DNA from: Burkholderiaceae bacterium
GTDB lineage: Bacteria; Pseudomonadota; Gammaproteobacteria; Burkholderiales; Burkholderiaceae_F
Length of the DNA: 29,976 bases
Assembly (NCBI GenBank): GCA_035537135.1
Contig: DATLMT010000419.1
Span: 1-29,976, forward strand
Direction: 5' to 3'
Below are positions 1 to 25,484 of this stretch, one piece after another (the stretch's first letter is position 1; every line of letters begins with the position of its first letter). Both the position numbers and the translations under genes were made by a program. The notes beneath the pieces were generated by a model. That model had not been told where the DNA came from. It saw only the letters and a list, made by a program, of their open reading frames with translations, and made no database searches.

Positions 1-1156
1 CGTTCTGCGGAGCGGCAGCCATCGTCTCGATGACCTTGCGGTTGGACCGGGTCGTGATGACTGTCGCGCCCTCGGCGATGAAGCCGCGCAAGCCACCGAT
101 GTGGTCGCCATGATGATGCGTGACCGCGATATAGCGAATCGGCTTGCCGGGGATTGTTTCCTTGATGCGCTTGATGACCGCATCGGCGCCCTCGCTGGTG
201 CCGGGTGCTTCGACGGCAACAATGTAGTCCTTGAATTCGACTGCCATCGTGTTCTGATTCTGGCCCGCGACGTTGTGAATCACGTACACGCCATCCGCCA
301 GCTTCTCCACGCTCGGCTTCAATGTTAGCGGCAAGGCCGGAACTTTACGGAACGCGGCGTCGGATACTTCGAATGACTTGTCGGCGTCGGCGGGATTAAA
401 TTCGGCCTTGACCTTGTAGCGTGCGACAACGTCCCCCGCCAGCCGCCACGTCCAGGTTTGCGGCACTTTCAGTTTTCCCGCGACGACGTAATCGGAGAAC
501 ATGATCTCGGAGGATTGCTGACCGCGCAGCGGATCGGTAATGACCAGCTCGTACTTGGAAACCAGACCGCTTTGCGCGTCGACGTACAGCGCAACCTGCT
601 GCGTATCGGGCATCACGAACGTAACGACATTGTGCTTACGGCCGTCAAATGGCGCTTCGCCAAGGTAGCGCAGCGAGTTCGCGCCATCGAGCGCCTGCCG
701 CAAGATCAGATGTGGAAGTCGCCGGTAATACTGGACGAATTGCTGCTGTGACGTTTGCTCGACAGGAATAGGTGTCGCCGTACGCGCGCGATGGTCGTAG
801 ACGGTGCCTTCGCCCAGTTTGATGATAACTGTGTTGTGGCCGTCAAACCCTGCGCCGCTCACGCGCTGCTCAAGATGCAGTCGATTGTCTTTGAGGTCGA
901 AAGTGAGCGCCTCGTGAAACTGGCCGGACTCGAAGGGAGGAGCCGGTGTCGGCATCTGCAAGCGAGGCCACGTTTCGCCTTGCAACTGCAGCTTCAGTGT
1001 TTCGATGCTCTGAAGCGCGTCGCGTCCTCCAATCGCCGCTACCGCTGAGTCGATCACTTTGCGTGCTCGCTCTTGCGAGCGGTTCGTCAGCGTGGCCGAA
1101 ACTGCGGCGGACGCCAGTGATGTACACAGTGCCAGCAGCAACAGGCTTTTGCGCAT
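1..1156 (-). CDS. Secreted MBL-fold metallo-hydrolase with a long N-terminal beta-rich domain (3'-truncated by window edge; absent from the ORF track)
   Basis: Manual minus-strand translation from ATG 1156 (RBS GGAGG) gives MRKSLLLLALCTSLASAAVSA (signal-peptide-like) and stays open to the window edge. It contains VEKLADGVYVI, NTMAVEFKDYIVAVEAP and THHHGDHIGG (HxHxDH motif at about 101-118). Confidence 0.85.
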   Translation of the reverse strand, partial: MRKSLLLLALCTSLASAAVSATLTNRSQERARKVIDSAVAAIGGRDALQSIETLKLQLQGETWPRLQMPTPAPPFESGQFHEALTFDLKDNRLHLEQRVSGAGFDGHNTVIIKLGEGTVYDHRARTATPIPVEQTSQQQFVQYYRRLPHLILRQALDGANSLRYLGEAPFDGRKHNVVTFVMPDTQQVALYVDAQSGLVSKYELVITDPLRGQQSSEIMFSDYVVAGKLKVPQTWTWRLAGDVVARYKVKAEFNPADADKSFEVSDAAFRKVPALPLTLKPSVEKLADGVYVIHNVAGQNQNTMAVEFKDYIVAVEAPGTSEGADAVIKRIKETIPGKPIRYIAVTHHHGDHIGGLRGFIAEGATVITTRSNRKVIETMAAAPQN

Positions 1157-1274
1157 GGTCGCCTCCAAGAATGAGCGCGGCGACTCTAGCTTTCCGTGCG
1201 TATCGCCGCGCACGTAAGCGACGAGCCGGCGATCAGCGGGACGAAACGGTTGCCCGCGACGACAGAACGGGCGG

Positions 1275-2078
1275 CTACTGGCTGGCGGTGATGCCGCCGT
1301 CGACGTACAGAACTTGGCCGGTCGTGAAGCACGCCGCGGGTGCGCACAGAAAGAGCACGGGTCCGACGACGTCTTTCGGCTCGGCGACGCGCCCCATTGG
1401 AATGCGCTCAAGCAGGTAGCGGCGCGTGGTCTCGTTGTCGAGCCAGTGTCGGCCCATCGGGGTCGCGACCACCGTCGGCGCGACACCGTTGACGCGAACT
1501 CGATGCGGCGCCAGCTCAGATGCGTGCTGCTTGATCAGCATGACCAGCGCACCCTTGGTGGCGCAGTACGCCGAATAGCCGCGTCCGCGCATCGCCAGCT
1601 GTGCGCGCACCGACAGCAAGTGCACCTGCGCGCCCCCACGGCCGTCGGCCACCTGATGGCGCGCGCACGCCTGCGCGACGAACATCGCCGCTTTTACATT
1701 GACGCGGTAAATTTCGTCGAACTTTTCTTCGCTGACGTCCGCCAGTAGCTGCTCGCGCTGGATGCCGATGCAATTGACCAGCAGATCAAGACGGCCGTGC
1801 TGATGGTGGGCGCAATCGACGGCTGAGCGCATCGACTCGAGGTCTTCTGCATCGGCGACCGCTGCATCCGCCTGCAGCCCCGCCTTGCGAATCGCCGCAG
1901 CGAGTGCGTCTGCTCTTTCTGCACTGCGTCCGACAATCACAGGAATCGCGCCTGCCAGTGCGAGTCCCCAACAAACCGCTTCACCGATGCCGCCGTAGCC
2001 ACCGGGCACGAACGCGACCTGGCCATCGAGCCGGAACTGTGCAGCAAGCTCGCGGGTGTAGTCGATGGGGGATGTCAT
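1275..2078 (-). CDS. SDR oxidoreductase, gluconate 5-dehydrogenase-like, predicted NADP(H)-preferring
   Basis: Rossmann motif VPGGYGGIG, YCATK (YxxxK) catalytic motif, C-terminal TGQVLYVDGG. Beta2 ends in VGRS with no acidic residue. Confidence 0.85.
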   Translation of the reverse strand: MTSPIDYTRELAAQFRLDGQVAFVPGGYGGIGEAVCWGLALAGAIPVIVGRSAERADALAAAIRKAGLQADAAVADAEDLESMRSAVDCAHHQHGRLDLLVNCIGIQREQLLADVSEEKFDEIYRVNVKAAMFVAQACARHQVADGRGGAQVHLLSVRAQLAMRGRGYSAYCATKGALVMLIKQHASELAPHRVRVNGVAPTVVATPMGRHWLDNETTRRYLLERIPMGRVAEPKDVVGPVLFLCAPAACFTTGQVLYVDGGITASQ

Positions 2079-2081
2079 CAG

Positions 2082-2822
2082 TCAATCCATCAGCAAGCCG
2101 CCGTTGATGTCGACGATCTCGCCGGTGATAAACCCGGCCAGCGGCGACGCCAGGAAGCGCACGACATGCGCGAACTCTTCCGGCTCGCAAAATCGTCCGA
2201 CCGGAATCGTCGCCAGCAGTGCCGAACGCTGTGATTCACTCAACCCTTCGGTCACCATCGGCGTGCGCACGTACGCTGGTGCAATGCCGTTGACCGTGAC
2301 ACCATCGGGTGCCAGTTCGCGCGCGAGCGAAAATGTCATTGAGCTCAGCGCACCTTTTGAAACAGCGTAAGCCGAGCCTGCGGTTAAACCGCCGGTCTTC
2401 GCCGCCAGCGAAGTCGTATTGATGATGCGCCCCCAGCGCTGTCGCGTCATCGCCGGGATCACCGCTCGCGCAAGAAAGAAAGCAGCATCCAGGTTGATCG
2501 CTAGCACGCGGCGCCACTCACTTTCGTCGGTCGCCTGCGACTTTGAGTTGGACAGCACGCCCGCGTTGTTGAGCAGAATGCCAACCTCCCCCAATTGGGA
2601 CTCGATGCGCCCGACCAGCGCAGGCATCCCATCAATCGAAGTCAGATCGGCCGCGAAAGCAGTGCCGTCGGTAACTTCAATCGCCGCATGGTCGAGCCGC
2701 TCGCTCGCCAGATCGACCAACGCAACACGACACCCGGCAGCTGCAAGCGCGTGCGCGGCGGCGAGCCCCATCGGTCCCGCCGCGCCGGTTACGAGCGCGA
2801 CTTTGCCATTCAACTCAGACAT
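2082..2822 (-). CDS. SDR oxidoreductase, FabG-like, predicted NAD(H)-preferring
   Basis: TGAAGPMG, NNAG, YAVSK and ITGEIVDINGG motifs. Asp at the end of beta2 (ALVDL). Confidence 0.88.
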   Translation of the reverse strand: MSELNGKVALVTGAAGPMGLAAAHALAAAGCRVALVDLASERLDHAAIEVTDGTAFAADLTSIDGMPALVGRIESQLGEVGILLNNAGVLSNSKSQATDESEWRRVLAINLDAAFFLARAVIPAMTRQRWGRIINTTSLAAKTGGLTAGSAYAVSKGALSSMTFSLARELAPDGVTVNGIAPAYVRTPMVTEGLSESQRSALLATIPVGRFCEPEEFAHVVRFLASPLAGFITGEIVDINGGLLMD

Positions 2823-3732
2823 CGAGCACGCTTTTCTTGCCCGCCAGACCGCGCGCGCGCAGCGTCACGACCACGATGAAGAGGATGTACATCGAAACGA
2901 TTGCCCAGTCACCGGCGAACGCGCCCGTCAGTCCCACGACCATTCCGACTAACAGGCCCGCCGCTACGGCACCCCAGAAGCTGCCTACACCGCCCAGCAC
3001 TATGATCAGGAAAGCAGGCACGACCGCATCGACACCCACCTGCGGACGAATTCCCCATACCGGTGCGAGCACGATGCCTGCCAGCGCGGCCAGCGCAACG
3101 CCGAGCGCGAAGACACCGAGCCGCAGCTGTGTCAGATTGATGCCCAATGCACGAATCATCTCGCTGTCGTATGAGCCGGCCTTGATCTTCGCGCCATAGG
3201 AGGTGCGCTCAATAAAGAGCCACAGCGCGCCGATCGCGAGCGCAGCGGCAGCCGCCGCATAAAATCGATAGCGCGCAAACAAGAGATCGCCGATAACCAC
3301 CGAGCCTTGTAGCGCTTCCGGCGTTGGCAGCACGCGCTCGCGCGATCCCCATATCGCGCGGATTGCTTCCTCGATCACGATCGCGGCCCCGAAAGTCAAC
3401 AACAGCGCGTACAGCGGATCTTTGCCGTACGTCCGCCGCAGCGCCAACTCGAGGATCATGCCGAACGCGCCGACGATTACGGGCGCCAATACCAGCGCGA
3501 TCGCGTAGCGCACCGCAAGCGGCAGCGCCAGCCACCCGGCAGCGGTCTCGGGTGGCAATGGCGGCGCGACGATCATCAGCGCCACATACGCGCCGAGCGC
3601 GAAGAACGAACCGTGCGCCAGGTTGATCGTCTCCATCAGCCCCACGATCAGCATGAAGCCAAGCGCAAGCAGTGCAAACAGCAGCCCGAGCGCGATGCCG
3701 TTGACCAGATGCGGCGCGAGCGTGGCGAGCAT
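2815..3732 (-). CDS. livH: Branched-chain amino acid-type (HAAT) ABC permease, LivH-like
   Basis: NGIALGLLFALLALGFMLIVG..INLAHG, GAKIKAGSYDSEM..LGIN, and VLGGVGSFWGA motifs; strongly hydrophobic. Confidence 0.9.
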   Translation of the reverse strand: MLATLAPHLVNGIALGLLFALLALGFMLIVGLMETINLAHGSFFALGAYVALMIVAPPLPPETAAGWLALPLAVRYAIALVLAPVIVGAFGMILELALRRTYGKDPLYALLLTFGAAIVIEEAIRAIWGSRERVLPTPEALQGSVVIGDLLFARYRFYAAAAAALAIGALWLFIERTSYGAKIKAGSYDSEMIRALGINLTQLRLGVFALGVALAALAGIVLAPVWGIRPQVGVDAVVPAFLIIVLGGVGSFWGAVAAGLLVGMVVGLTGAFAGDWAIVSMYILFIVVVTLRARGLAGKKSVLDV

Positions 3733-3770
3733 TATTCAGGGACGGCTAAATACAATGGCACGAGTTGTGA

Positions 3771-5108
3771 CTATTGCTCGTAAGACGGCGTCGCCTCGTA
3801 CGACTCGAGCTTGCACGCGCTGACTGCGGCCTTGTCTTCGACGTCGGCCGGCGGCACCCAGGACATGATCTTGAAGATGTCGTCCTTTTCAGCGGGCGTG
3901 TCGTTGTAGCTCGCCATATAAATGGTCTGCTGCATCTGGTGCGTGGCCGGGTTCATGTACGCATCGAAGTGCTGCATCCGGTCGCGCGCACTGACCTTGA
4001 GATTTTCGAGCTGCTTGATGACCGCGATGTTATTGGTACTGCCGGCGCGCTCACACGCACGCAGCAACTCGCGCGTCGCCATGTAGCCGTTGTAATAGAC
4101 GTTGCCCGGTACCCGAATCGCCATCCCGGGAAATGTCTTCTGATACTGCGCGACGAACTCCTTGACGCCCGGCAGATCGAGCCGGTAGTACCAAGTGGTG
4201 CCGAACACGCCGAACATCGCGTCCGGGCCGAGCCCATAGACGTCAGGCCAATCCTGCTGATTGTTGATCCACGCCATGCGCTTGTGCAGTCCGGCTTGGA
4301 TCACCTGCTGGCGCATCGACTTCTGGTCGTCGCCGCCGACCGCCGCTGCGACTACGTCCGGCTTCATCTGCTGCAGTCGCAGCAGATACGAAGTGAAGTC
4401 GCGCGTGTTCTGCGGTACCAGGATCTCGCCGATGATTTTTCCGCCTTGTGCCTCCACCAGCTGCCGCGTGGCTTTCGACGTGTCGTGCCCCCACACGTAG
4501 TCGTTGGTCACCAGCACCCAGTTGTTGCCGTTGACCTTCATCGCGTTCTTGACGATCGCCTGTGCGAAGTTGCTGCCGTTGCCGTCCCACACGAACTTGG
4601 TACGGTGGCAGTTCTGCCCGGCCTCAGTCGGCGAGCTCGAATTGGTGTTCATGTAAACAACACCATATTTCTGCGCCACCTGGGATATTGCGTTCGCCAC
4701 ACCCGAGTGCAGCGCGCCGATCAAAAAAGCGACGTTATTGCGCGTGATCATGCGCTCGGCCACGCGCGAGCCGGTGGCCGGCGTCGTTTCGGTATCGATA
4801 TGAATATGCTCGATTGGCCGGCCCAGCACGCCGCCCTTGTCGTTGAATTCCTTGATCGCGAGCATCGCGCCCAGACGTTCATCGCTGCCGCTGGCCGCGT
4901 ATTGACCACTTGCGTCCATCGTCAGCCCGAGCACCAGCGGTTTTTTCTGCGCGGTTTGTGACCACACATGGTTATGTTTCCACGGGCCGTAGAACGGTGC
5001 GACACCGTAGAGTCCGGCGGTGGCCGCGCTCAGAGCGCTAGCCTTGAGCAGGCGACGACGTGTTGATGCGTCGGGCGTGGGGTGTTGAAGCTTCTTTGAC
5101 TGTTTCAT
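3771..5108 (-). CDS. HAAT-family ABC substrate-binding protein with Tat signal
   Basis: N-terminal TRRRLLKASALSAA twin-arginine motif and AIKEFNDKGGVLGRPIE..D periplasmic-binding fold motif. RBS AGGAG upstream. Confidence 0.9.
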   Translation of the reverse strand: MKQSKKLQHPTPDASTRRRLLKASALSAATAGLYGVAPFYGPWKHNHVWSQTAQKKPLVLGLTMDASGQYAASGSDERLGAMLAIKEFNDKGGVLGRPIEHIHIDTETTPATGSRVAERMITRNNVAFLIGALHSGVANAISQVAQKYGVVYMNTNSSSPTEAGQNCHRTKFVWDGNGSNFAQAIVKNAMKVNGNNWVLVTNDYVWGHDTSKATRQLVEAQGGKIIGEILVPQNTRDFTSYLLRLQQMKPDVVAAAVGGDDQKSMRQQVIQAGLHKRMAWINNQQDWPDVYGLGPDAMFGVFGTTWYYRLDLPGVKEFVAQYQKTFPGMAIRVPGNVYYNGYMATRELLRACERAGSTNNIAVIKQLENLKVSARDRMQHFDAYMNPATHQMQQTIYMASYNDTPAEKDDIFKIMSWVPPADVEDKAAVSACKLESYEATPSYEQ

Positions 5109-5161
5109 TGTCGTCTCCTGTACGTCCTATGTGTCATTCGCTCACGCGCGCGGACGTCGTG

Positions 5162-6058
5162 CTAGCGCGGAACGATCTTGATACCGTTTAACTTCTCCTG
5201 CGCCTCGATCAGTGACGGCATGAAGCGCTCTCCGAGACCGAGCGCCGTCGCCTGCACCAAAGCCTGATGTACCGCTTCGCCGACGTAACTTGCCGCGCCG
5301 TGCGACTCCGCCAAGTGGGTGTAGTAGCTCATGTCCTTGCGGCCATTGGCGATCGTGAACTTCATTCCCGTCAGATCGCCTTCGACCGCTTTGCTTGCGA
5401 TCATTTGGAACACGCCTGAGTTGACGCCACCTGCCGAGATGACTTCCAGCAGCTTGCGCAACGACAGTCCGCTCTTGGCGGCGATGCCGAATGCTTCCGC
5501 GGTGCTGGTCGCGATCGACAGCGCAAGAAAGTTGTTGACCAGCTTCAGCACATGGCCGTGGCCCGGCGGTCCGACGTGAATGACGTTCTCGCAAAACGCT
5601 TTCATCACCGGCTGCAGCCGTTCGAAATTTGCCGCATCGGCACCGACCATCGTGTTCAACCGGCCTTCTTCAGCCTCCTTCGGTGTGCGCGCCAGCGGCG
5701 CGTCGATATACGGGACTCCGCGCTCGGCGAGGTCGGCACGAATGCGGGCCGTGGAATTGGGCTCGCTGGTCGAGCAGTCCACGATCAGCATGCCGTCACG
5801 CGCGGCCGCGAGCATCCCGTCTGCGCCGTAAATGATTTCTTCGACCTGAGGCGAGCCGGTTACGCAGAAAAAGACGATGTCACTCGCAGCAACGAGCGCT
5901 CGTGTGTCTTTGACTTCGACTGCGCCCGCTGCGGTCAGATCGGCGAGGTTGGCGCGGTTGCGATGAACTTTGAATGCCAGCGGATACCCTTTGGCAAGCA
6001 GGTGCTTGGCCATGCCGTGGCCCATTAGGCCGATGCCGACGAATCCGATGCGCTCCAT
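5162..6058 (-). CDS. NAD(P)-dependent beta-hydroxyacid dehydrogenase (3-hydroxyisobutyrate dehydrogenase / tartronate semialdehyde reductase family)
   Basis: IGFVGIGLMGHGMA Rossmann motif, DAPLARTP substrate loop, catalytic Lys in LKLVNN. Confidence 0.88.
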   Translation of the reverse strand: MERIGFVGIGLMGHGMAKHLLAKGYPLAFKVHRNRANLADLTAAGAVEVKDTRALVAASDIVFFCVTGSPQVEEIIYGADGMLAAARDGMLIVDCSTSEPNSTARIRADLAERGVPYIDAPLARTPKEAEEGRLNTMVGADAANFERLQPVMKAFCENVIHVGPPGHGHVLKLVNNFLALSIATSTAEAFGIAAKSGLSLRKLLEVISAGGVNSGVFQMIASKAVEGDLTGMKFTIANGRKDMSYYTHLAESHGAASYVGEAVHQALVQATALGLGERFMPSLIEAQEKLNGIKIVPR

Positions 6059-6079
6059 GTTCTGCGGTGTCCTGTCGAT

Positions 6080-8050
6080 TTATGTGTTGGTGGAGGCGAG
6101 CGCAGGCGGCGCTTGCGCTGAGACTGCATGCCGTGCATCGGCAAAGCGCCGTACCAGCCGCACGTAACGCTGCGAAATCGCTTCGATTGCAGCGGCATCG
6201 TCGATTTCGCCCGTGAACCATGTGCGCGCGGTCTCGCCAAATATCGTGCGCCCAACGGCAAAGCCTCGGCACAGCGAATGGGTGGCCGCTTCGGCGAGCT
6301 GTTCGGCCAGCTCGTCGATCTGCGCATCCAGGCCGAGCACAAGCACACCGCGACAATAAGAGTCAGCACCCCGTATTGCGCTATCCAGCCGCTTCCATCC
6401 TTGCGCATTCGAGGGCGCGGGCAGCTTCCACCAATCGGGCAGCACGCCGGCTGCCGCAATTGCGGTGACGGCGCGGGCCAACACCTCGTCAGCATCGCGC
6501 GGGTCGTCGCGGAGCATCGGCGGAATCACTTCAAGCAGAAGCTCGCGACCGGAGTCTTCGCACGCCTTACGGAGATCGTGCAGCGTTGCGATCTGCTCGC
6601 CTCTGAGCGTCGGAGGATCATCGGCATCAAACGCCACCAGGCACTTCGCGATATGGCGGGCCGGCCATTCGCGCAACATCGACTGCACGTTGCGGCCGTG
6701 CTCGAAGCGCAGCGGACGCGAACCGGGATCCTCGACCGGCCGCGCTATCCACCAGCCGGACTCATCGAGCTCGGGTAGCAGACCGGCGCCATATCTATCA
6801 TCGAGTATCAATCCGTACGTTGCACCGAGACCTGCGGCGCGGACGCTGGCACGCTGTGCAGCGCGCGCGACCAGATGTTTGAACTGTGAGATGCGGGTCA
6901 CTGGCGTGTTCAGGTCGGACGCGAGTTGCTCGAGGGGCGCGCGGTGATCGAACGCCAGCGCCGCGATCCATGGCGGCGCTGGCCGTCGCGTGGTGGCGTG
7001 GTGCAGGCGGTTCAGTGCAGCGTCTTCACGCAATCGCGGCGTGGCAGAACCGTATCGCAGAAAGTGTTCGAGCTCGACGGCGGTCGGAATGGCGGGTGCG
7101 CAGCCGTGGCGCGATACAACCAACGCGCCGCACGCGTTAGCGCGGCGTCCACACTCCGCCAACGATGCGTCGCGCAGCCATCCGCTCAAAAATCCCGCCA
7201 TGAATGCGTCGCCCGCGCCGAGCACGTTGAACACTTCGATCGGAAACCCCGGCACGTCGATCGGGGCAGCGCCGCGCGCTCCCGGATAAATCGTACAGCC
7301 TGATTCGCCGCGCTTGACCACCAGCGTCGCAGCCGATGCCCGGCGCAGTGCGTGCGCGGCACTGCGTGAATCGCTGGTATCGGCGGCGATGCAGAACTCT
7401 TCTTCGGTCCCGACGATCAAATCGCAAAGAGCGATGATCGGTTGCAGGGTGGCGCTGACCGAAGACGCCTGGACGTAGCGTTTCTCCCCGTCGGCAAGCG
7501 GTGCGAGTCCCCAAAGAACCGGCCGGAAATCGATGTCGAGGACGACGCGCCCACCGGCGGCTCGCGCTGCGTCGATCGCGGCGCGGCACGCTGCATGAGT
7601 TCCCGGTTGCGACAGATGCGTGCCGGAGATCAGCACTGCGGTGGCGGTCGCGATGTAGCGTGAATCGATGTCAGCCGCTTCGAGCGCCATGTCGGCACAA
7701 TGGTCGCGATAGAAAAGCAGCGGAAACGCGGTGCGGCTTCGAATACTCAGAAATACGAGGGCGGTCAGGCGTTGCGGGTCAAGGCGCACGTGGCTGACAT
7801 CAACGCCCTCGCGCGCGAGTGTGTCGAGCACGAACCGGCCGTTTTGCTCGTCGCCGACGCGCGTCAGCATGGCGGCCTCAAGGCCTAGGCGGGCGCATCC
7901 GACGGCGGTATTGGCGGGCGAACCGCCGAGGTAACGCGCGAAGGTCGTCACGTCTTCGAGACGCGCGCCAATCTGCTCTCCGTATAGATCGACCGCGGCG
8001 CGTCCGATGCAAATGACGTCGAGTTTCCGCGGCAATGCACCGTCCTTCAT
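6080..8050 (-). CDS. iolC: Bifunctional 5-dehydro-2-deoxygluconokinase / DUF2090 aldolase-like protein
   Basis: LDVICIGRAAVDLYGEQIG..YLGGSPANTAVG and PfkB signature GAGDAF. C-terminal LAFDHR...LLLEVIPP...PDWWKL...GFAVGRTIF matches DUF2090. Confidence 0.92.
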   Translation of the reverse strand: MKDGALPRKLDVICIGRAAVDLYGEQIGARLEDVTTFARYLGGSPANTAVGCARLGLEAAMLTRVGDEQNGRFVLDTLAREGVDVSHVRLDPQRLTALVFLSIRSRTAFPLLFYRDHCADMALEAADIDSRYIATATAVLISGTHLSQPGTHAACRAAIDAARAAGGRVVLDIDFRPVLWGLAPLADGEKRYVQASSVSATLQPIIALCDLIVGTEEEFCIAADTSDSRSAAHALRRASAATLVVKRGESGCTIYPGARGAAPIDVPGFPIEVFNVLGAGDAFMAGFLSGWLRDASLAECGRRANACGALVVSRHGCAPAIPTAVELEHFLRYGSATPRLREDAALNRLHHATTRRPAPPWIAALAFDHRAPLEQLASDLNTPVTRISQFKHLVARAAQRASVRAAGLGATYGLILDDRYGAGLLPELDESGWWIARPVEDPGSRPLRFEHGRNVQSMLREWPARHIAKCLVAFDADDPPTLRGEQIATLHDLRKACEDSGRELLLEVIPPMLRDDPRDADEVLARAVTAIAAAGVLPDWWKLPAPSNAQGWKRLDSAIRGADSYCRGVLVLGLDAQIDELAEQLAEAATHSLCRGFAVGRTIFGETARTWFTGEIDDAAAIEAISQRYVRLVRRFADARHAVSAQAPPALASTNT

Positions 8051-8964
8051 CGACGCTCTTTCTTGAACGCTCTTCTGCCCGAGGCGTGCGGGGAGCGCCG
8101 GTTCGCACGCCCGGCCATCAACCGGTGCCCGACGGCGACGACCAGCGATTGCGCGAGTACGATCGGCTCGACCAGCGAACGAAACGCGGCGCCGCCGTCG
8201 TCACCGATGGCAAAGGAAAGCGTGGCCACGCGCATCAGCGGAGACAACTTGCTGTCGGTGATCGCGATCACCGCGGCGCCCCGTTTGCGGCAGCTGTCGG
8301 CGATCTCGACAATCTCGTCGGTGTAATTGCGAAAGCTGACTGCGATCACCAATTCGTCGGCGGTGATGCGTGCGGCGAACTCGCGATTCATTCCGCCCAC
8401 GTTGTCCAGCAATTGCGTTCGGACCTCGAGCTGATTTAGCGCATAGGCGAGATATGCGGCAACCGGAAACGAGCGCCTCGCAGCAAGCAGATTGATTTGT
8501 GATGCGGCGGCGATCAATTCGACTGCCTGCGTCAGCAGCCGATCGTCCACTGCGTGCTGGAAGCGCTGCAGCTCGGCGATCGCCTGAACCGCCTGGGCGT
8601 GGAAAACAGCGCCAGGCGACGTGGCTTTCGGAGCGCGTGACTGCAACCGCTCGATACGCTCGCGATACGTCAGCGTACGCGCGCGCAACCGCGTCCGAAA
8701 CAGCTGGCGCAGCTCTGCGAAGCCGTCGCAATCGACGGCAGCGGCAAAGCGCACCAGCGCAGAGGGCTGTACGCCGATCTGCTCGGCCAGTTGCGCAGCG
8801 GTGCCGAGTGCAAAATCCTCGGGTGCGTCGAGCGCGAATCGGGCAATGCGCTGTAACTGACCCGGCAACCGCGGAAAGCGCTCGGTGATTTTTCCCGCGA
8901 GCTCTTCGTAGCTGCTGGGCCCGATAAACCGCTTCCGCCCGCTACTTATGGCTTGCGATTGCAT
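8047..8964 (-). CDS. iolR: MurR/RpiR-family transcriptional regulator (IolR-like)
   Basis: N-terminal HTH (LAEQIGVQPSALVRFA..GFAELRQLFR) plus SIS domain (RRSFPVAAYL, IAVSFRNY, IAITDSKLSPL). ATGA overlap with iolC. Confidence 0.85.
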   Translation of the reverse strand: MQSQAISSGRKRFIGPSSYEELAGKITERFPRLPGQLQRIARFALDAPEDFALGTAAQLAEQIGVQPSALVRFAAAVDCDGFAELRQLFRTRLRARTLTYRERIERLQSRAPKATSPGAVFHAQAVQAIAELQRFQHAVDDRLLTQAVELIAAASQINLLAARRSFPVAAYLAYALNQLEVRTQLLDNVGGMNREFAARITADELVIAVSFRNYTDEIVEIADSCRKRGAAVIAITDSKLSPLMRVATLSFAIGDDGGAAFRSLVEPIVLAQSLVVAVGHRLMAGRANRRSPHASGRRAFKKERR

Positions 8965-8994
8965 CGTCTGGCTTGATAAGTCTCATTGCTTTGC

Positions 8995-9045
8995 GGAACA
9001 TTAGAACGTAGATTACGTTTTGTCCAGAAACAGAACAAATATTCT
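8995..9045. promoter_or_regulatory. Candidate IolR operator sites in the AT-rich divergent promoter
   Basis: Palindrome AACGTA-GAT-TACGTT (9005-9019) flanked by GGAACA/TTGTCC, and AGAA-N6-TTCT (9032-9045). The latter resembles GGAA-Nx-TTCC IolR operators described in alphaproteobacteria. Confidence 0.55.
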
Positions 9046-9066
9046 AAAGCGGCTGCGGGGAGACTT

Positions 9067-10101
9067 GTGGCAGGCGTCCTAAGCACGCAAACGCGGGTTG
9101 TCGTACCTTCATTCGGGGTTGCAACGGCGCCGCGGTTCGCGCTCGCGTTCGGTGTCGTGCTCGCGCTGTTTGCAACCAGCCCGCTTTGGCTCGGCACCGT
9201 TGGGCTTTATCAGTACCTCGCTCTGGAAGTACTGATCTGGAGTCTGTACGCGCTGGGCTACAACCTCCTGCTCGGCTACGGTGGCTTACCTTCGTTCGGT
9301 CATGGCGCCTTCTTCGGCGTTGGCGCCTACGCGGCCGGGCTTGCCCTGAAGCAGGCCGAGATTGGATTGATCGCCGGCATGGTTACTGCGGTCGCTGCGG
9401 CCGCATTTTTCGGCGCCATCGTCGCAGTATTCATTTCGCATCGACGCGGCATCTACTACGCGCTGATGACGATCGCCTTCGGCCAGTTGGCGTGGTTTGT
9501 GTCGATCAAGTGGCACAGCGTAACCGGCGGCGAGGATGGACTGCTGAACATTCCGCGGCCGCCGCTCGACCTTGGCTTCGTTCAGTTTTCGTTGACATCG
9601 CATGCAGCGCTTTTCTATTTCGCGCTGGCGCTGTTCGGTGCGATCGCATGGGCGCTGTGGTACCTGATCGACACGCCGTTCGGGCGCGTACTAGGTGCCG
9701 TAAAGCAGAACGAGATGCGTGCGGCTTACTGCGGCCACAACGTCTGGCTCGTCAAGTTCACTGTGTTCGTAATGTCGTGTGCGATCGCGGGGTTAGCCGG
9801 GGGGCTATTCGCGCTGGCACAGCAGTCGGCGTATCCGAACGTGATGAGTCTCAACAATTCCGGCTACGTGGTGATGATGGTGCTGATCGGCGGCGGACTG
9901 GTGAGCTTCTGGGGGCCGGTGATCGGTGCCGTGTTCTTCATCATCGCGCGCGATTTGCTTGGCGCCTACACCGAGCTTTGGCTGCTGTGGTACGGACTGC
10001 TGTTCATGGCGCTCGTGCTGTTCAAGCCGGAAGGCCTTGCTGGAATGCTGCAACAACTGCGCGATAGAGCGCGCCGGCGCACGACCGATGTCGCTGCTTG
10101 A
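9067..10101 (+). CDS. livM: HAAT ABC permease, LivM-like
   Basis: LGYNLLLGYGGLPSFGHGAFFG, RGIYYALMTIAF, TGGEDG, TPFGRVLGAVKQNE and VLIGGG..FWGPVIGA motifs. Start moved from 8986 to GTG 9067, which follows GGGGAGA. Confidence 0.88.
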   Translation: MAGVLSTQTRVVVPSFGVATAPRFALAFGVVLALFATSPLWLGTVGLYQYLALEVLIWSLYALGYNLLLGYGGLPSFGHGAFFGVGAYAAGLALKQAEIGLIAGMVTAVAAAAFFGAIVAVFISHRRGIYYALMTIAFGQLAWFVSIKWHSVTGGEDGLLNIPRPPLDLGFVQFSLTSHAALFYFALALFGAIAWALWYLIDTPFGRVLGAVKQNEMRAAYCGHNVWLVKFTVFVMSCAIAGLAGGLFALAQQSAYPNVMSLNNSGYVVMMVLIGGGLVSFWGPVIGAVFFIIARDLLGAYTELWLLWYGLLFMALVLFKPEGLAGMLQQLRDRARRRTTDVAA

Positions 10102-10831
10102 AGCACGCCGCCTGCACAAGCGCTTCGGTCAGCAGATCGTGCTTGACGACGTGTCCTTCACGGTGGAAGCGGGTCAGCTTGCCGGAATCATCGGGCCTAA
10201 CGGCGCCGGAAAGACGACCTTCTTTAATGTTCTGACCGGCCGCTACAGGCCCGAGCGCGGCGAAGTATTTTTCGACGGCCGCAACATTACCGGTGCTTCG
10301 CCCGCCAACATCGCGCGCGCCGGCATCTCGCGCTCGTTCCAGTTGATGAATCTGTTCGACAGCTACAACGCGCTGGACAATGTGATCGTTGCGATGCGGC
10401 CTTTGATGAACAAGGCATTTCGGATGACCGGGCAAGTGCGGCGTGACTCTGCCTTGCAAGCGCGCGCCGCTCAACTGCTCGCCGATGTCGGGCTCGCGGG
10501 AAAAGAAGCCACACCCGCGAAGGCGCTCGCTTATGGCGATCGTCGCTGTCTGGAGATTGCAGTGGCACTCGCGCCCGAGCCGCGACTGCTGTTTCTCGAC
10601 GAGCCGACGGCCGGCATGGGCGCGCAGGGCGCACGCCGGCTCACGACCCTGATCGAGCAGCTGCGCCAGCGCACGACCATCGTTGTTATCGAACACGACA
10701 TGCCGTTTTTGTTTCGTATCGCCGATCACATCTCGGTGATCCAATGGGGCCAGGTGATCGCGCAGGGCACGCCGGCCGAATTGCGCGCTGATCCTTGGGT
10801 TGCGCGCAGCAATCTTGGAGGGGTCGCGTGA
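10088..10831 (+). CDS. livG: HAAT ABC ATPase, LivG-like
   Basis: Start MSLLEARRL at 10088; GPNGAGKTT, SRSFQ, LAYGDRR, LLFLDEPTAG and IEHDM motifs. Confidence 0.9.
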   Translation: MSLLEARRLHKRFGQQIVLDDVSFTVEAGQLAGIIGPNGAGKTTFFNVLTGRYRPERGEVFFDGRNITGASPANIARAGISRSFQLMNLFDSYNALDNVIVAMRPLMNKAFRMTGQVRRDSALQARAAQLLADVGLAGKEATPAKALAYGDRRCLEIAVALAPEPRLLFLDEPTAGMGAQGARRLTTLIEQLRQRTTIVVIEHDMPFLFRIADHISVIQWGQVIAQGTPAELRADPWVARSNLGGVA

Positions 10832-11526
10832 TGTTGCAAATAGAGAATATTTGCACGTTCTACGGCGAAACCCAGGCGTTGTTCGATGTGTCGCTGCAGG
10901 TGGGCCCCGGCGAGGTGGTCGCGCTACTTGGCGTGACCGGCGCTGGCAAGACGACTACGCTGCGCTCGATTCTCGGCCTGACTCCCGCGCGCCAGGGCAC
11001 GATTCGCTTCGACGGCAGCGATGTGACACATCACAGCACGCACCGCATTGCTCGCTCCGGCGTTGCCTGGGTGCCCGAGGAGCGGCGCGTCGTGCCAAGT
11101 CTTACAGTAAGACGGAATTTGTCGATTGCCGAGAAGCGGACCCGGTTTCGTCGCTGGACGATCGGCGAGTGCTGTGAAATCTTCACGGCGCTCCAATACC
11201 TGCTCGAGCGCGATAGCGAAAACCTTTCGGGCGGAGAGATGCAAATGGTGGCGATTTCGCGCGCACTGCTTGGCAGCCCAGGGCTGGTGTTGATGGATGA
11301 GCCGAGCCAGGGCCTGGCGCCTAAGGTCGTGCAGGACGTGATGCGCACCGTGCAGCGGTTGAAGAAGGAAGGCGTCAGCGTCCTGCTGGTCGAGCAGCAT
11401 GTAGGCGCCGCGCTCGATGTTGCCGATCGCGTGGTCGTGCTCGATCACGGCTCGGTCGTGCATCAAGGCGCAGCTGCCGACTTGCGTAACGACGCAGCGG
11501 CGCGCACTCGCTTGCTCGGTGCTTGA
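10831..11526 (+). CDS. livF: HAAT ABC ATPase, LivF-like
   Basis: GVTGAGKTT Walker A, VPEERR, LSGGEMQM, LMDEPSQGLAP and LLVEQ motifs. Confidence 0.9.
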   Translation: MLQIENICTFYGETQALFDVSLQVGPGEVVALLGVTGAGKTTTLRSILGLTPARQGTIRFDGSDVTHHSTHRIARSGVAWVPEERRVVPSLTVRRNLSIAEKRTRFRRWTIGECCEIFTALQYLLERDSENLSGGEMQMVAISRALLGSPGLVLMDEPSQGLAPKVVQDVMRTVQRLKKEGVSVLLVEQHVGAALDVADRVVVLDHGSVVHQGAAADLRNDAAARTRLLGA

Positions 11527-11530
11527 TTCG

Positions 11531-12145
11531 ATGGCGGATCTGCTGCGCGTCGCCGCTTTGCGCAAGGAATATCGCCACCGCTGGGCGAGCGTGCCCAGCT
11601 TCGTGCTGCATGCCGATCTCGCTTTTGCCGAACCGGGAATCGTCGGCGTGCTTGGTCCGAACGGCTCAGGCAAGACGACGCTGTTCGAATTAATTACCGG
11701 CTCGAATGCGCCCACCGCCGGCTCAGTGCACGTCGACGGGCAGGACATTCACAGCGTTCGGCGCAACGAGCGGGGCCAGCTTGCGCGGCATTATCACCAG
11801 TCGTATCAGATCCGGCGCTTCCGATCGTGGAGGCCCGAGGCAATGCTGGCGCACGCCGCGCGCGAAGAGGCTTTGGTTCACCTGTTCGACGAGCCACAGC
11901 TGAACACGCAGGACGGCTACATCGGGTTCATGCTACGGTTCTTCGAGAACCTGCGGCGCCGCGACCGGTTGCTGTTCGTCTGCCTGCATCCGCAGGAGCG
12001 TTGGCAGCTCGATTTGTTGCGCGAAATTGCCGCCAGCTTCGTGTTTGTTGAACGTGGCCAGGTATCGCGGCACGCCACCTTCGAGGAACTAATATGCGTG
12101 CCTGGAGCGCGCGATTATCTCGGCCATCTGGCCGGAGCGGAATAG
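11531..12145 (+). CDS. Atypical short ABC ATPase lacking the helical/signature subdomain
   Basis: GPNGSGKTT Walker A, HQSYQ Q-loop, VHLFDEP Walker B and CLH switch are present; there is no LSGGQ-like motif. 204 aa from ATG 11531, tightly packed between livF and iolA. Confidence 0.75.
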
Positions 12146-12149
12146 CGAT

Positions 12150-13673
12150 ATGGGAAAAAACGAAGTAGCACTCGCCGACATAACACATTGGATCGCCGGG
12201 CGCCGTGGCGGCGTTCCAAACGGCCACAGCGATCGCACAGGCGAAGTCTTTAATCCAGCCACTGGAGACGTCACCGGTTCTGTGCGGTTAGCGGATGCCG
12301 GCACGGTCGACGCCGCGGTCAGTGCCGCGCTTGCGGCGCTGCCCACATGGAGCGCGACCTCACCGCCGAATCGAGCGCGTGTGATGTTCCGCTTCAAGGA
12401 GTTGCTGGAGCGCAATCACGACGCGCTGGCGTCGATCATCACGAACGAGCACGGCAAAGTGTTCAGCGATGCCAAAGGCGAAGTACAGCGCGGCATCGAG
12501 ATTGTCGAGTTCGCATGCGGCGCGCCGCAGCTGCTCAAGACGCAGTTTTCGGACAACATTGGCGGCGGCATCGACAACTATTCGTTGCGCCAACCGCTTG
12601 GCGTGGTCGCCGGGATTACGCCGTTCAATTTTCCAGTGATGGTTCCGATGTGGATGTTTCCGCTGGCGCTTGTATGCGGAAACACTTTCGTGCTGAAGCC
12701 ATCCGAGCGCGATCCGTCGGCATCGTTGCTGCTAGCTGAACTGCTGCAGCAAGCGGGATTGCCTGACGGTGCGTTTAACGTCGTGCAAGGGGACAAGGAA
12801 GCGGTCGACGCGATTCTTGCGAATAAAGGCATCGCCGCCGTCAGCTTCGTCGGCTCGACGCCGATTGCGCAATATATCCATGCCGAAGGCACACGCCACG
12901 GCAAGCGTGTACAGGCGCTGGGGGGCGCCAAAAATCACATGGTCGTCATGCCGGACGCCGATCTCGATCATGCGGCCGACGCGCTCACTGGCGCCGCGTA
13001 TGGGTCGGCAGGCGAGCGCTGCATGGCGATATCCGTATGCGTAGCGGTTGGCAACGTCGCCGATCCGCTGATTGACAAGCTGAAATCGCGCATCGGCGCG
13101 CTGCGAATCACCGGCGGCATGGACGCAACGGCAGATATCGGTCCGTTGGTCACAGGCGCACATCGCGAGAAAGTGCTTGGTTACATCGACCACGGTGTGC
13201 GCGAAGGCGCGCGGATCGTGTGCGACGGACGCACTCACGAAGCCGCAACGCAAGCCGGATTTTTCCTCGGCGCAACGCTGTTCGACAAAGTCGAACCGTC
13301 GATGCGAATTTATCGTGAAGAGATTTTCGGGCCAGTGCTCGGCGTCGTGCGCGTCCCCGACCTCGCAGCGGCACTAGAGATCGTCAACTCGCACGAGTAC
13401 GGTAATGGCGTGGCCATTTACACCGCCGACGGCGGCACCGCGCGCGACTTCGCGCGCAGCGTGCAAGCAGGCATGGTCGGAGTCAATGTGCCGATTCCGG
13501 TGCCAATGGCGTTTCACTCGTTCGGCGGCTGGAAGCGCTCGATGTTCGGCGACCACCACGCATACGGCGAAGAGGCAATTCGCTTCTACACGCGCTACAA
13601 GTCGGTCATGCAGCGCTGGCCTGACGCGGCAGCAACCAAAGGGCCCGAGTTCGCGATGCCGGTGCACAAGTAG
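12150..13673 (+). CDS. mmsA: CoA-acylating (methyl)malonate-semialdehyde dehydrogenase
   Basis: [38 protein letters not shown], catalytic [17 protein letters not shown] and SFGGWKRS motifs. Equivalent to IolA. Confidence 0.95.
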
Positions 13674-22995: not shown

Positions 22996-24378
22996 GTGAG
23001 TGCAAAAGTGTTGGACCCTACCGTTCCTCACCCGGCCATCCCGCACCCCGACGTTCCGCACCTGATAACCGCGCAAACGGGGCCGCTTCTGCAATTGGAG
23101 CAGCGCATTTTGGAGTCGCTGCCGGCGATTGAGCGCTGGTTTCGGCTGCAGTGGCAGGACCACACGCCGCCGTTTTACGGGTCGGTCGATTTGCGCAACG
23201 CCGGCTTCAAGCTCGCGCCCGTTGATATGAATCTGTTTCCCGGCGGATTTAACAACCTTTCCGAGCAAATGCTGCCTGCGGCGGTACAGGCGGCGCAAAC
23301 CGCGATCGATCGTATGTGCCCCGACGCGCGCAATGTGTTGCTGATTCCGGAACGGCACACGCGCAACCAGTTTTATCTGACCAACGTCGCACGACTGGTG
23401 CGCATCCTGCGCCAAACTGGGCTCGAAGTTCGCCTGGGCTCGCTGGCAGAAGATGTGACACAGCCGACGCGCGTCGCTCTTGACGACGGTGATGAGCTGC
23501 TGCTTGAACCGCTGGTGCGCGACGGCGGCAGCCTTGGTGTCGAAGGCTTCCGTCCGTGCGCCATTCTGTTGAATAACGACCTGTCGTCTGGCATTCCGCC
23601 AATCCTGCGCGGGCTCGATGACCAGATCGTGATACCGCCGCTGCAGGCCGGGTGGGCGGTGCGCCGCAAGTCGAATCATTTTGCCGCGTACGACCAGATT
23701 GCCGACGAGTTTGCGCAGATGCTCGGCATTGACCCGTGGTTCATCAACCCGTACTTCGGGCGCTGCGGGGAAGTCAATTTCCATGAGCGCTCGGGCGAAG
23801 AATGTCTTGCGACCAATGTGGACTTCGTGCTGGAGCGAATGCGGGAAAAGTATCGCGAGCACGGCATTACCGATACGCCTTACGTGGTGGTGAAAGCCGA
23901 TGCCGGCACCTACGGTATGGGTGTCATGACGGTGCGCGATGCGTCCGAAGTGCGCCAACTCAACCGCAAGCAGCGCAACAAAATGGCGGTGATCAAAGAG
24001 GGCCTGGAAGTTACCGAAGTCATCATCCAGGAAGGAGTGCCGACGCGCGAAAACGTCGACGGCGCTGCGGCAGAGCCGGTCGTTTATATGATCGACCGTT
24101 ACGTGGTGGGCGGCTTTTATCGTGTGCATACAGAGCGCGGGCCCGATCAGAACCTGAATGCGCCTGGAATGCACTTCGTCCCGCTGGCGTTTTCCGACAG
24201 CTGCAATCTGCCGGACTGCAGTGCTCAGGCGGGCGACAGCGTGCCGAATCGGTTCTACTCGTACGGCGTGATCGCGCGCCTCGCGTTGCTGGCGGCCGCG
24301 ATCGAGCTCGAAAGCACGGCGTCGCGATTAGAAGTGCCCGCACCGTCGGCGGCACTCGCCGCCGCGATCGCGGGATAG
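22996..24378 (+). CDS. gshA: Glutamate--cysteine ligase (betaproteobacterial GshA type)
   Basis: IERWFRLQWQDHTPPFYGSVDLRNAGFKLAPVDMNLFPGGFNNL, VVKADAGTYGMG and NLNAPGMHF motifs. The true start may be slightly downstream. Confidence 0.93.
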   Translation: MSAKVLDPTVPHPAIPHPDVPHLITAQTGPLLQLEQRILESLPAIERWFRLQWQDHTPPFYGSVDLRNAGFKLAPVDMNLFPGGFNNLSEQMLPAAVQAAQTAIDRMCPDARNVLLIPERHTRNQFYLTNVARLVRILRQTGLEVRLGSLAEDVTQPTRVALDDGDELLLEPLVRDGGSLGVEGFRPCAILLNNDLSSGIPPILRGLDDQIVIPPLQAGWAVRRKSNHFAAYDQIADEFAQMLGIDPWFINPYFGRCGEVNFHERSGEECLATNVDFVLERMREKYREHGITDTPYVVVKADAGTYGMGVMTVRDASEVRQLNRKQRNKMAVIKEGLEVTEVIIQEGVPTRENVDGAAAEPVVYMIDRYVVGGFYRVHTERGPDQNLNAPGMHFVPLAFSDSCNLPDCSAQAGDSVPNRFYSYGVIARLALLAAAIELESTASRLEVPAPSAALAAAIAG

Positions 24379-24403
24379 TTCGCGATCTGAGCTCGCGCGT
24401 CGC

Positions 24404-25360
24404 ATGCCATTAACGTGGCTGTTCATCGTCGATCCATTCGACGACTTAAAGGAATACAAAGACTCGACTGTCGCGATGATGCGCGAGGCGGCGCGCCGCG
24501 GCCACGTCGTGCACGCCGGCACGCCCGCCGAGCTGTGGTTCGACAGTCACGACGGACTGGTGCGGATGCAATCGCATCAGCTCGAGATGACGCAGCAGGC
24601 CGCGCCCTGGTATGTCGATCTGGGGGTGCGCGATCATCCGCTGAATTTTTACGACGCGGTGTTGATGCGCAAGGATCCGCCGTTCGACGTTGAGTTTTTG
24701 AACGCGACTTTGTTGTTGTCACGGGCGGTGGCGCAGGGCGCCCACGTGATCAATGATCCGCAGGCCTTGCGCGATCACAACGAAAAGCTCGCGGTGCTGG
24801 AGTTCCCGCAGTATGCGGTGCCGACGCTGGTGACGCGGAGCATTCCTGGTATTCGAACCTTTTGGGCCGAGCACAGCGACATCATCGTCAAGCCGATTGA
24901 CGGCATGGGAGGTGCGGGTGTGTTTCGCCTGCAGCCGGGGGATCTGAATGCCGGCTCGATTCTGGAGGCTGTCACGCAGCACGGCGAGCGCACCGTGATG
25001 GCTCAGCAATTCATTCCGGAGATCAGCGAGGGCGACAAGCGCATTCTGGTAATTGGCGGCGAGCCGGTGCCGTATTGCCTCGCGCGCATTCCGGCGCCCG
25101 GTGAAACGCGCGGCAACCTGGCCGCCGGTGGCAACGGCAGAGCGCAGCCGCTGACTCAGCATGACGAGATGATCGCGCGCGGGGTTGGAAAAGCGCTGTT
25201 GCCGCGTGGATTGATGCTGCTCGGTCTGGACGTGATCGGTGATCACCTGACCGAAATCAACGTCACCAGCCCGACGTGCTTCGTTGAAATCGAAGGACAG
25301 GCGGGATTTAACGTGGCAGGGATGTTTATCGATGCGTTGGAGAAAGCGGTGGCTCGCTGA
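24404..25360 (+). CDS. gshB: Glutathione synthetase
   Basis: KDSTVAMMREA, VLMRKDPPFD, NEKL, KPIDGMGG, GDKRIL, RGNLAAGG and TEINVTSPT motifs. Confidence 0.96.
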   Translation: MPLTWLFIVDPFDDLKEYKDSTVAMMREAARRGHVVHAGTPAELWFDSHDGLVRMQSHQLEMTQQAAPWYVDLGVRDHPLNFYDAVLMRKDPPFDVEFLNATLLLSRAVAQGAHVINDPQALRDHNEKLAVLEFPQYAVPTLVTRSIPGIRTFWAEHSDIIVKPIDGMGGAGVFRLQPGDLNAGSILEAVTQHGERTVMAQQFIPEISEGDKRILVIGGEPVPYCLARIPAPGETRGNLAAGGNGRAQPLTQHDEMIARGVGKALLPRGLMLLGLDVIGDHLTEINVTSPTCFVEIEGQAGFNVAGMFIDALEKAVAR

Positions 25361-25370
25361 TGTTTTGCTG

Positions 25371-25385
25371 TGGCATTTGTACTGC
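25371..25385 (+). promoter_or_regulatory. Possible sigma54 promoter upstream of the PTS genes
   Basis: TGGCAT-TTGTA-CTGC with GG-N10-GC spacing; the -12 box has CTGC rather than TTGC. Confidence 0.4.
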
Positions 25386-25463
25386 GCGCGTACGCGCAGC
25401 CGCTCCGAAGGGAGCGCGCCTGACTACTCGTGACGAGTGCACGTGCGACCGCGCAGCGGTCGC
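25382..25463. other. Array of four perfect hairpins in the gshB-EIIA spacer
   Basis: CTGCGCG-CGTA-CGCGCAG (25382-25399), CGCTCC-GAAG-GGAGCG (25401-25416), ACTCG-TGA-CGAGT (25426-25438), GCGACCGC-GCA-GCGGTCGC (25445-25463). Confidence 0.7.
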
Positions 25464-25484
25464 GTACACGAGGAACGCCGCCTA

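Follow-up and report, generated by a model that had tools for sequence, protein, structure and literature searches.

Sulfoglycolysis by the sulfo-Embden-Meyerhof-Parnas (sulfo-EMP) route employs the YihV kinase, the YihT aldolase and the YihU reductase, and the interconversion of L-idonate and 5-ketogluconate is catalysed by gluconate 5-dehydrogenase (IdnO/Gno). The lower myo-inositol pathway, as described for Bacillus subtilis (Yoshida 2008, cited in PMC9007349), consists of IolC, of IolJ or a DUF2090 protein, and of IolA; in the oxidative deoxyribonate pathway, which was found by genome context and genetics (PMC6365646), the catabolism of a 2-deoxy sugar acid is initiated by a short-chain dehydrogenase (SDR). 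In the following, we describe a gene island at positions 1275-13673 of a 29 976-nucleotide stretch of DNA from a Burkholderiaceae bacterium (the window), which is contig C419 of a 2.6-Mb Burkholderiales metagenome-assembled genome (MAG; G000), 89.7% complete and divided into 426 contigs. Judging from its gene content and distribution, the island would be a self-contained catabolic module, most likely for a polyhydroxy acid, which enters the lower inositol pathway at 5-dehydro-2-deoxygluconate (DKG) and is controlled by an RpiR-family regulator, a reading to which we give somewhat better than even chances.

The island comprises twelve densely packed genes arranged as two divergent arms, and the gaps between genes, from -8 to 53 bp, point to two divergent operons. 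The minus-strand operon contains, in this order, rpiR, an IolC-DUF2090 fusion, a beta-hydroxyacid dehydrogenase (bHAD), a periplasmic binding protein, a LivH-like permease and two SDRs, SDR_B and SDR_A; the plus-strand operon contains a LivM-like permease, LivG, LivF, a third short ATPase and a CoA-acylating methylmalonate-semialdehyde dehydrogenase (MMSDH, i.e. IolA/MmsA). The gene order and families proposed in an initial annotation of the window are borne out by the Pfam and NCBIfam profile scores of its open reading frames (ORFs), to which two points can be added, namely that IolC and the DUF2090 aldolase form one fused protein, by which the aldolase step is encoded within the island as well, and that the importer genes are divided between both arms. 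The fusion (6080-8050, minus strand), which combines a PfkB kinase with a class I aldolase, reaches 721.6 bits on NF047869, above the cut-off of 600, and its N-terminal domain 397.8 bits on TIGR04382, above the cut-off of 300. The MMSDH, which closes the plus-strand operon (12150-13673), scores 661.7 bits on TIGR01722 (cut-off 448.5) and is 62-68% identical to the MMSDH of canonical iol operons. The part of the canonical iol gene set formed by IolC, the aldolase and IolA is present in the MAG, and the part formed by IolG, IolE, IolD and IolB is not. The window itself is devoid of Gfo/Idh/MocA, IolE, IolD and IolB genes, in agreement with the initial annotation, the remainder being housekeeping genes (patatin-Omp85, ComM, AmtB, GshA, GshB, PTS-Ntr and cytochrome bd).

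When the contigs of the MAG were searched with profiles, no match to IolB or IolE was obtained, the best match to IolG remained at 114 bits, below the cut-off of 355, and the best IolD-like match reached 194 bits against a cut-off of 715, as would an ordinary thiamine diphosphate-dependent paralogue. The whole-genome search for iolG, iolE, iolD and iolB that had been suggested at the outset therefore returned none above cut-off. Since the MAG is incomplete, the searches for IolB, IolE and IolD were repeated in five fusion-carrying genomes of the same genus, 92-100% complete, and again none was found above cut-off; the same holds for IolG in the two of these five genomes that were searched for it. 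Furthermore, IolB and IolD are absent by profile search from five cluster-carrying isolates, i.e. Polaromonas aquatica (complete chromosome), Polaromonas sp. JS666, Variovorax sp. OV329, V. flavidus and Pseudaquabacterium terrae, and IolG is also absent from the complete P. aquatica chromosome. Control genomes gave the expected matches in each of the upper-pathway searches. The gene set is thus conserved in relatives that lack the upper pathway, namely the five genus genomes (as to IolB, IolE and IolD) and the five isolates (as to IolB and IolD), and the upper inositol pathway is genuinely absent from the lineages searched.

Entry of the module at DKG, by what would be a new route, is well supported by the distribution of the clusters, which is complementary to that of canonical iol operons. 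When species genomes were scanned for the binding protein, 80 Burkholderiales loci (binding proteins 74-98% identical) were obtained from Polaromonas, Variovorax, Ramlibacter, Rhodoferax, Piscinibacter, Caldimonas, Casimicrobiaceae and numerous MAGs, and the locus contexts were reconstructed with tblastn and our own ORF calls. Where the cluster carries its own fusion, IolB is found in 0/41 distinct genomes; where it does not, IolB is found in nine of ten genomes and canonical-class iol genes in all ten. Five of the latter are genomes in which the cluster is reduced to importer, RpiR and SDR_A, and each of them encodes a canonical-class fusion at another site, with IolB beside it (the fusion scores 916-1030 bits in four of these genomes and is fragmented in the fifth); four further fusion-less clusters are in IolB-positive genomes, of Rhodoferax, Piscinibacter and two betaproteobacterial MAGs, and the tenth genome has a canonical fusion of 1009 bits, with no IolB found. 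On a Piscinibacter MAG contig (L128, 115-13499), iolC (998 bits), iolD (906), iolE (388) and iolB (336) lie about 1 kb from an importer/RpiR/bHAD cluster that is without a fusion of its own. A replacement cleavage enzyme was sought in the flanks of the fusion-less clusters, and only housekeeping genes were found there (major facilitator superfamily (MFS) transporter, MetX/MetW, PTS-Ntr, GshB). On the binding-protein tree, possession of an own fusion switches five times or more, with good branch support for three of these switches, and IolB, where it differs between paired genomes (e.g. in a Piscinibacter MAG pair), has always switched the opposite way.

The order as a whole was sampled with 251 evenly drawn genomes, each at least 90% complete, and 21 of them contain an NF047869 fusion above cut-off. 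Sixteen of the 21 are canonical (803-1099 bits, the lowest being cut at contig ends), with IolB present in 15/16 and usually only a few kilobases away; the other five are low-scoring (717-795 bits), with IolB in none and the binding protein adjacent in all. The association with iolB, iolD and iolE is therefore absent for the cluster-type fusion (IolB in 0/41 genomes, versus 15/16 for canonical fusions). The occurrence of the fusion in cis in genomes without an iol operon, and in trans in genomes with one, argues that the product of importer and SDR_A needs a DKG kinase/aldolase, and, as DKG or a very close analogue is the only point common to both situations, this is most likely what importer and SDR_A yield.

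Within the genus all 12 genes are syntenic in 8/8 loci, the adjacent MMSDH included. For the wider set, the arm from rpiR to SDR_A is fully covered in 55 of the 80 loci, and these were typed according to their content beyond importer, RpiR and SDR_A: (i) type I, with IolC fusion, bHAD and SDR_B (44 loci, 13 of them with adjacent MMSDH); (ii) type II, with IolC fusion and MMSDH, and without bHAD or SDR_B (4 loci); (iii) type III, with nothing further (5 loci); (iv) type V, with bHAD and SDR_B, and without the fusion (1 locus); and (v) one other locus, with IolC fusion and bHAD, and without SDR_B. bHAD and SDR_B occur together in 45/55 loci and are both missing in 9/55; they are gained and lost jointly, and independently of the fusion and of MMSDH. 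SDR_A is found in every Burkholderiales cluster type and is the enzyme most constantly tied to the importer. The smallest IolC-bearing form, made up of importer, RpiR, IolC fusion, SDR_A and MMSDH in the four type II loci, speaks in favour of one SDR step leading to DKG. A distantly related lineage (L146, L152, L154 and L157; binding protein 63-65% identical) has the same gene content in a rearranged order, in which IolC-RpiR is divergent from an arm made up of bHAD, the binding protein, LivHMGF, the third ATPase, SDR_B and SDR_A. In a related cluster type (L106-L108 and L131-L144, with binding proteins 60-65% identical) the entire importer runs in one direction, with RpiR divergent from it, and is accompanied by one SDR and a succinate-semialdehyde-dehydrogenase-like aldehyde dehydrogenase. 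A metagenome scan with the alpha-type binding protein gave 80 loci, and among ten neighbouring ORFs compared with Pfam there was neither a transketolase nor a transaldolase.

From these observations we infer the following sequence of steps. The compound would be taken up by a six-component HAAT-type ABC importer, consisting of the binding protein, two permeases, two ATPases and the extra truncated ATPase, and a single redox reaction catalysed by SDR_A would then give DKG or a very close analogue. DKG would be phosphorylated at C6 by the kinase half of the fusion, the DUF2090 half would cleave phosphorylated DKG to dihydroxyacetone phosphate (DHAP) and malonate semialdehyde, and MMSDH would convert malonate semialdehyde to acetyl-CoA. 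bHAD and SDR_B may represent an optional pair, which prepares a second, isomeric substrate or handles the aldehyde product, and RpiR would probably repress both operons at AGAAC-N4-GTTCT-like palindromes until a pathway intermediate appears. In its broader form, i.e. a widespread pathway for a common environmental compound that enters at DKG and is served by HAAT-type importers numbering in the thousands among Burkholderiales of soil and freshwater, we regard the proposal as an even bet.

SDR_A (267 aa; 1275-2078, minus strand; Pfam adh_short_C2, 1e-51) has the YxxxK motif at 171 and GRS after strand 2. Its closest solved relative, 5u9p (E 6e-43), is named 'gluconate 5-dehydrogenase', and the obvious chemistry for SDR_A would be the C5 oxidation of a 2-deoxyhexonate. 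SDR_B (246 aa; 2082-2822, minus strand), also recognized by Pfam, is FabG-like, its closest solved relatives being FabG enzymes, and an Asp after strand 2 hints that it uses NAD. bHAD (5162-6058, minus strand; PF03446 and PF14833) belongs to the 3-hydroxyisobutyrate dehydrogenase family, with 3w6u, 3cky and 1vpd as its closest solved relatives, and remains below the family cut-offs (186 vs 340.75 bits on TIGR01505, 129.7 vs 291.6 on TIGR01692).

Several points weigh against this reading, or against parts of it. As to the substrate, the initial annotation had proposed that an acyclic acid is fed straight into the lower inositol pathway, with a 2-deoxyhexonate oxidized at C5 as an example. Direct entry has been strengthened by the absence of the upper pathway and by the complementary distribution; the example has been weakened, because 2-deoxyglucose is not known as a natural compound (Price 2019, PMC6365646) and 2-deoxygluconate, which would be the simplest precursor, has no natural source that is known, which speaks against 2-deoxygluconate as the substrate. 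SDR_A, moreover, misses the gluconate 5-dehydrogenase models by a wide margin (160.7 vs 279 bits on NF006070, 156 vs 408 on NF005983, 143 vs 369 on NF005488), which speaks against a 2-deoxyhexonate, and the GRS after strand 2 faintly suggests that it is NADP-dependent, which makes the direction of its reaction uncertain. MMSDH adjoins the cluster in only 17/48 fully covered IolC-fusion loci and is the sole copy above cut-off in the MAG, so that it may double as the housekeeping mmsA. bHAD adjoins the fusion in 45/49 IolC-bearing loci, and its best family matches are tartronate-semialdehyde reductases, which would fit another aldehyde product. Distantly related importers, with binding proteins 60-63% identical, are partnered by an SDR and a succinate-semialdehyde-dehydrogenase-like (GabD-like) aldehyde dehydrogenase in complete genomes of 6-9 Mb that lack IolC and IolB; these importers may take up a related hydroxy-acid that is handled differently. 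Finally, when the complementary distribution of fusion and IolB was tested with phylogenetic correction, there were only 3-5 independent contrasts, which agree in direction and are too few for significance (sign test p 0.25).

Some of these points would be accommodated if the cluster-type kinase/aldolase had come to act on a related keto-acid, for instance 5-keto-D-gluconate or a ketohexuronate, SDR_A being a gluconate/idonate 5-dehydrogenase and MMSDH incidental; cleavage would then lead to DHAP and tartronate semialdehyde, and the latter would be reduced to glycerate by the adjacent bHAD. The position of bHAD next to the fusion and its reductase-like matches, the name of the best solved relative of SDR_A and the lack of MMSDH in most clusters are in line with such a pathway, as is the placement of the fusion in a clade of its own, where scores on the model are lower: in a maximum-likelihood tree, 32 importer-linked and 7 canonical fusions are split by a branch with SH-aLRT 100. 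However, none of the 39 sequences reveals a polar or charged residue that differs consistently between the two clades, the fixed differences being limited to 7 positions, all of them conservative hydrophobic or small-residue changes, and 126 residues are invariant across both groups, including the PfkB catalytic motif GAGD278-281, K469 and E507. The 38-residue spacing of K469 and E507 is equal to that of K493/E531, the DUF2090 Lys/Glu pair of BPHYT_RS13910, described in the work that proposed a fused kinase-aldolase from fitness data (Price 2022, PMC9007349). The invariance of catalytic and polar residues, with conservative fixed changes only, suggests that the substrate chemistry has been retained. 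Furthermore, fusion-less clusters are confined to genomes with a canonical DKG-type enzyme, which indicates that the canonical enzyme can do the job; MMSDH has been recruited at two different cluster positions, all four bHAD-less loci carry it, and the specific gluconate 5-dehydrogenase and tartronate-semialdehyde reductase models all remain below cut-off. We therefore consider a shift to a keto-acid unlikely.

bHAD and MMSDH make up the classical mmsB/mmsA pair, and this raises the question of whether the island is a 3-hydroxyacid module, in which uptake is followed by oxidation to a semialdehyde by bHAD or an SDR and by the MMSDH reaction, with the IolC fusion as a passenger or as the remnant of a lost inositol operon. 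Such a module would agree with the MMSDH of the island being the only one of the MAG, and with the pairing of distant importers with an SDR and a succinate-semialdehyde-dehydrogenase-like enzyme in clusters without IolC. A passenger would, however, hardly be expected inside the operon between rpiR and bHAD, where the fusion is found with one overlapping and one 21-bp junction, nor to be conserved, with its catalytic residues intact, in over 40 genomes and also in the rearranged form of the cluster, nor to be distributed in a way that is complementary to canonical iol operons; MMSDH, for its part, is missing from most clusters. This explanation appears distinctly improbable.

With a Peripla_BP_6 binding protein (3771-5108, minus strand; PF13458, 3e-76), two BPD_transp_2 permeases, LivH/UrtB-like (2815-3732, minus strand; PF02653, 4e-33) and LivM/UrtC-like (about 9067-10101, plus strand; PF02653, 4e-37), and two ABC ATPases, LivG/UrtD-like (10088-10831, plus strand; PF00005) and LivF/UrtE-like (10831-11526, plus strand; PF00005, 2.7e-29), the importer has the composition of the HAAT family (Liv/Urt type). 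The third, short ABC-ATPase-like protein (204 aa; 11531-12145, plus strand) aligns only to positions 6-65 of the 137 of PF00005, with GPNGSGKT, and no match is obtained to the rest of the ABC_tran domain, in which the signature motif lies. It accompanies LivF in 58/58 loci and is kept also in the distant alpha-type clusters, which suggests that importers of this family have it as an obligatory sixth component. Profile scores on the urea and Liv equivalog models are all under cut-off (166 bits for the LivH-like permease on TIGR03409, the UrtB model, and about 205 bits each for the LivG-like ATPase on TIGR03411 and NF008449), the binding protein scoring higher on urea/amide-type models than on LivJ; by these models the substrate is thus predicted to be neither urea nor a branched-chain amino acid. 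The binding protein carries a twin-arginine signal (TRRRLLK) and is 92-98% identical within the genus and 75-81% across Comamonadaceae and others. Its homologues exceed 2900 at E<=1e-30 among the candidates scored, and members of the family abound in metagenomes from soil and freshwater. Among solved structures none is close enough to hint at a ligand, the best being 3i09 at 112 bits. Some distant relatives of the importer adjoin an Ldh_2-family dehydrogenase (L184, 7771-8928) or a Gfo/Idh/MocA oxidoreductase (L201, 7185-8234) instead of the usual partners.

HAAT binding proteins typically bind amino acids, and D-glucosaminate, being an alpha-amino acid, would suit one of this type. It might be oxidized at C5, phosphorylated and cleaved to DHAP and aminomalonate semialdehyde, which bHAD would reduce to serine; 3w6u, the best solved relative of bHAD, is presumably a serine dehydrogenase. 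Glucosaminate is abundant at places of chitin oxidation (PMC9537276). The recurrence of MMSDH, however, points to malonate semialdehyde, the canonical IolC would need to accept a 2-amino analogue, the binding protein prefers urea/amide-type models over LivJ and no deaminase or aminotransferase is found in the cluster, which together leave glucosaminate a very improbable substrate. Lastly, that the upper inositol genes are present and were missed, the island being part of ordinary myo-inositol catabolism, would find room in the incompleteness and fragmentation of the MAG (89.7% complete, 426 contigs), and we discount it almost entirely, an artefact of this kind being refuted for the lineages searched by the absence of IolB, IolE and IolD from near-complete relatives (and of IolG from the two searched for it) and of IolB and IolD from isolates, with controls behaving as they should.

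With regard to the control of the module for which DKG is the favoured entry point, the RpiR-family regulator (8047-8964, minus strand; HTH_6 and SIS domains, PF01418 and PF01380) opens the minus-strand operon, and the divergent promoter region between rpiR and livM, which is conserved in all cluster types, contains candidate operators at 9002-9045 (palindromes, without assigned strand). The first, AGAACGTAGATTACGTTTT, is an imperfect palindrome at 9004-9022; the second, AGAACAAATATTCT, at 9032-9045, fits AGAAY-N4-RTTCT and is the single copy of this motif in the window. The motif is found in 75/130 loci, in 1-2 copies, 30 bp apart, and exclusively in the rpiR/livM intergenic region; it is missing from all the canonical iol loci that were fetched. 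Cluster RpiR and the RpiR of canonical iol loci are only 30-34% identical. The palindromes are likely RpiR operators, and the divergent regulator together with a motif restricted to the clusters suggests that the module has a regulatory unit of its own, to which RpiR would bind. The ORF of the LivM-like permease opens at 8986, and alignments of orthologues start at about residue 26-64 of this long ORF; the in-frame GTG at 9067, 3' of the operators, is its likely start.

The surroundings of the island also show some regularities. At window positions 2-1270, on the minus strand, lies a gene of more than 423 aa that runs off the window and has a metallo-beta-lactamase fold only near its C-terminal end; as its adjacency to SDR_A is seen across the genus and is not shared by other lineages, it is probably outside the module. 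gshA/gshB and the EIIA, HPr and EI genes of the nitrogen-related phosphotransferase system (PTS-Ntr) lie in the neighbourhood of the cluster in this genus (22996-27968 in the window) and in a fusion-less lineage (L043, 16722-20190). This common chromosomal setting suggests that the site has been inherited vertically and that the IolC-bHAD-SDR_B block has been gained or lost within it. Apparent frameshifts were seen in SDR_A, the binding protein, LivH, the third ATPase or MMSDH of six genus loci (L018, L019, L020, L021, L023 and L025), and they may be assembly errors rather than pseudogenes.

A literature search retrieved no paper on this cluster. Automatic annotation of the fusion as '5-dehydro-2-deoxygluconokinase/aldolase' means that tools such as GapMind might rate these bacteria as partly equipped for inositol use; what the data point to is another physiology, with a new feeder route into DKG that has its own importer, regulator and operator. 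If this is true, the lower inositol pathway would be a common trunk with at least two independent feeder routes, and the IolC-DUF2090 clade linked to the importer would represent a dedicated paralogue that is retained solely in the absence of the inositol operon. The alternation between a paralogue in cis and a canonical operon in trans would, moreover, provide a clean natural experiment on pathway modularity. The identity of the ligand would annotate thousands of binding-protein genes and could reveal an overlooked carbon source, and, as the cluster is present in cultured Polaromonas sp. JS666, P. aquatica 36b22, Variovorax sp. OV329 and Ramlibacter sp. WS9, the proposal is directly testable.

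How the island relates to the systems from which we started can now be stated. Sulfo-EMP sulfoglycolysis resembles it in joining a PfkB kinase and a LacD-like class I aldolase, which yield DHAP and an acidic aldehyde, with a bHAD-family enzyme adjacent; the island differs in having no sulfoquinovosidase, isomerase or sulfonate exporter, in the IolC/DUF2090 type and the fusion of its kinase and aldolase, and in its acylating MMSDH, which points to malonate semialdehyde. With the idonate/5-ketogluconate system it shares an SDR, SDR_A being nearest to SDRs that oxidize C5 of hexonates (5u9p, 1vl8 and 4z9x), and such a C5 oxidation is the chemistry that would be needed to form DKG from a 2-deoxyhexonate; nevertheless, SDR_A is far below the gluconate 5-dehydrogenase cut-offs, and what follows downstream is a kinase and a DHAP-forming aldolase rather than GntK and the Entner-Doudoroff pathway. 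The deoxyribonate pathway (PMC6365646) likewise starts with an SDR and is a precedent for deoxy-aldonates as natural substrates; it differs in the C5 substrate, in oxidation at C3 and in relying on a beta-keto-acid cleavage enzyme and CoA chemistry, with no kinase or aldolase. The likeness to the lower inositol pathway comprises the kinase-aldolase family, the catalytic Asp/Lys/Glu residues, an MMSDH 62-68% identical to IolA and an RpiR-type regulator. In comparison with canonical iol systems, the island is distinguished by the absence of IolG, IolE, IolD and IolB from the genome, by a fusion that forms a separate clade, by an operator motif of its own, by a HAAT-type importer in place of a sugar-type ABC or MFS transporter, and by its own SDRs and bHAD. 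What is already known is, in summary, the downstream half, i.e. the lower inositol pathway; what differs is the paralogue clade, the HAAT importer, the putative SDR entry and the regulator with its candidate operator.

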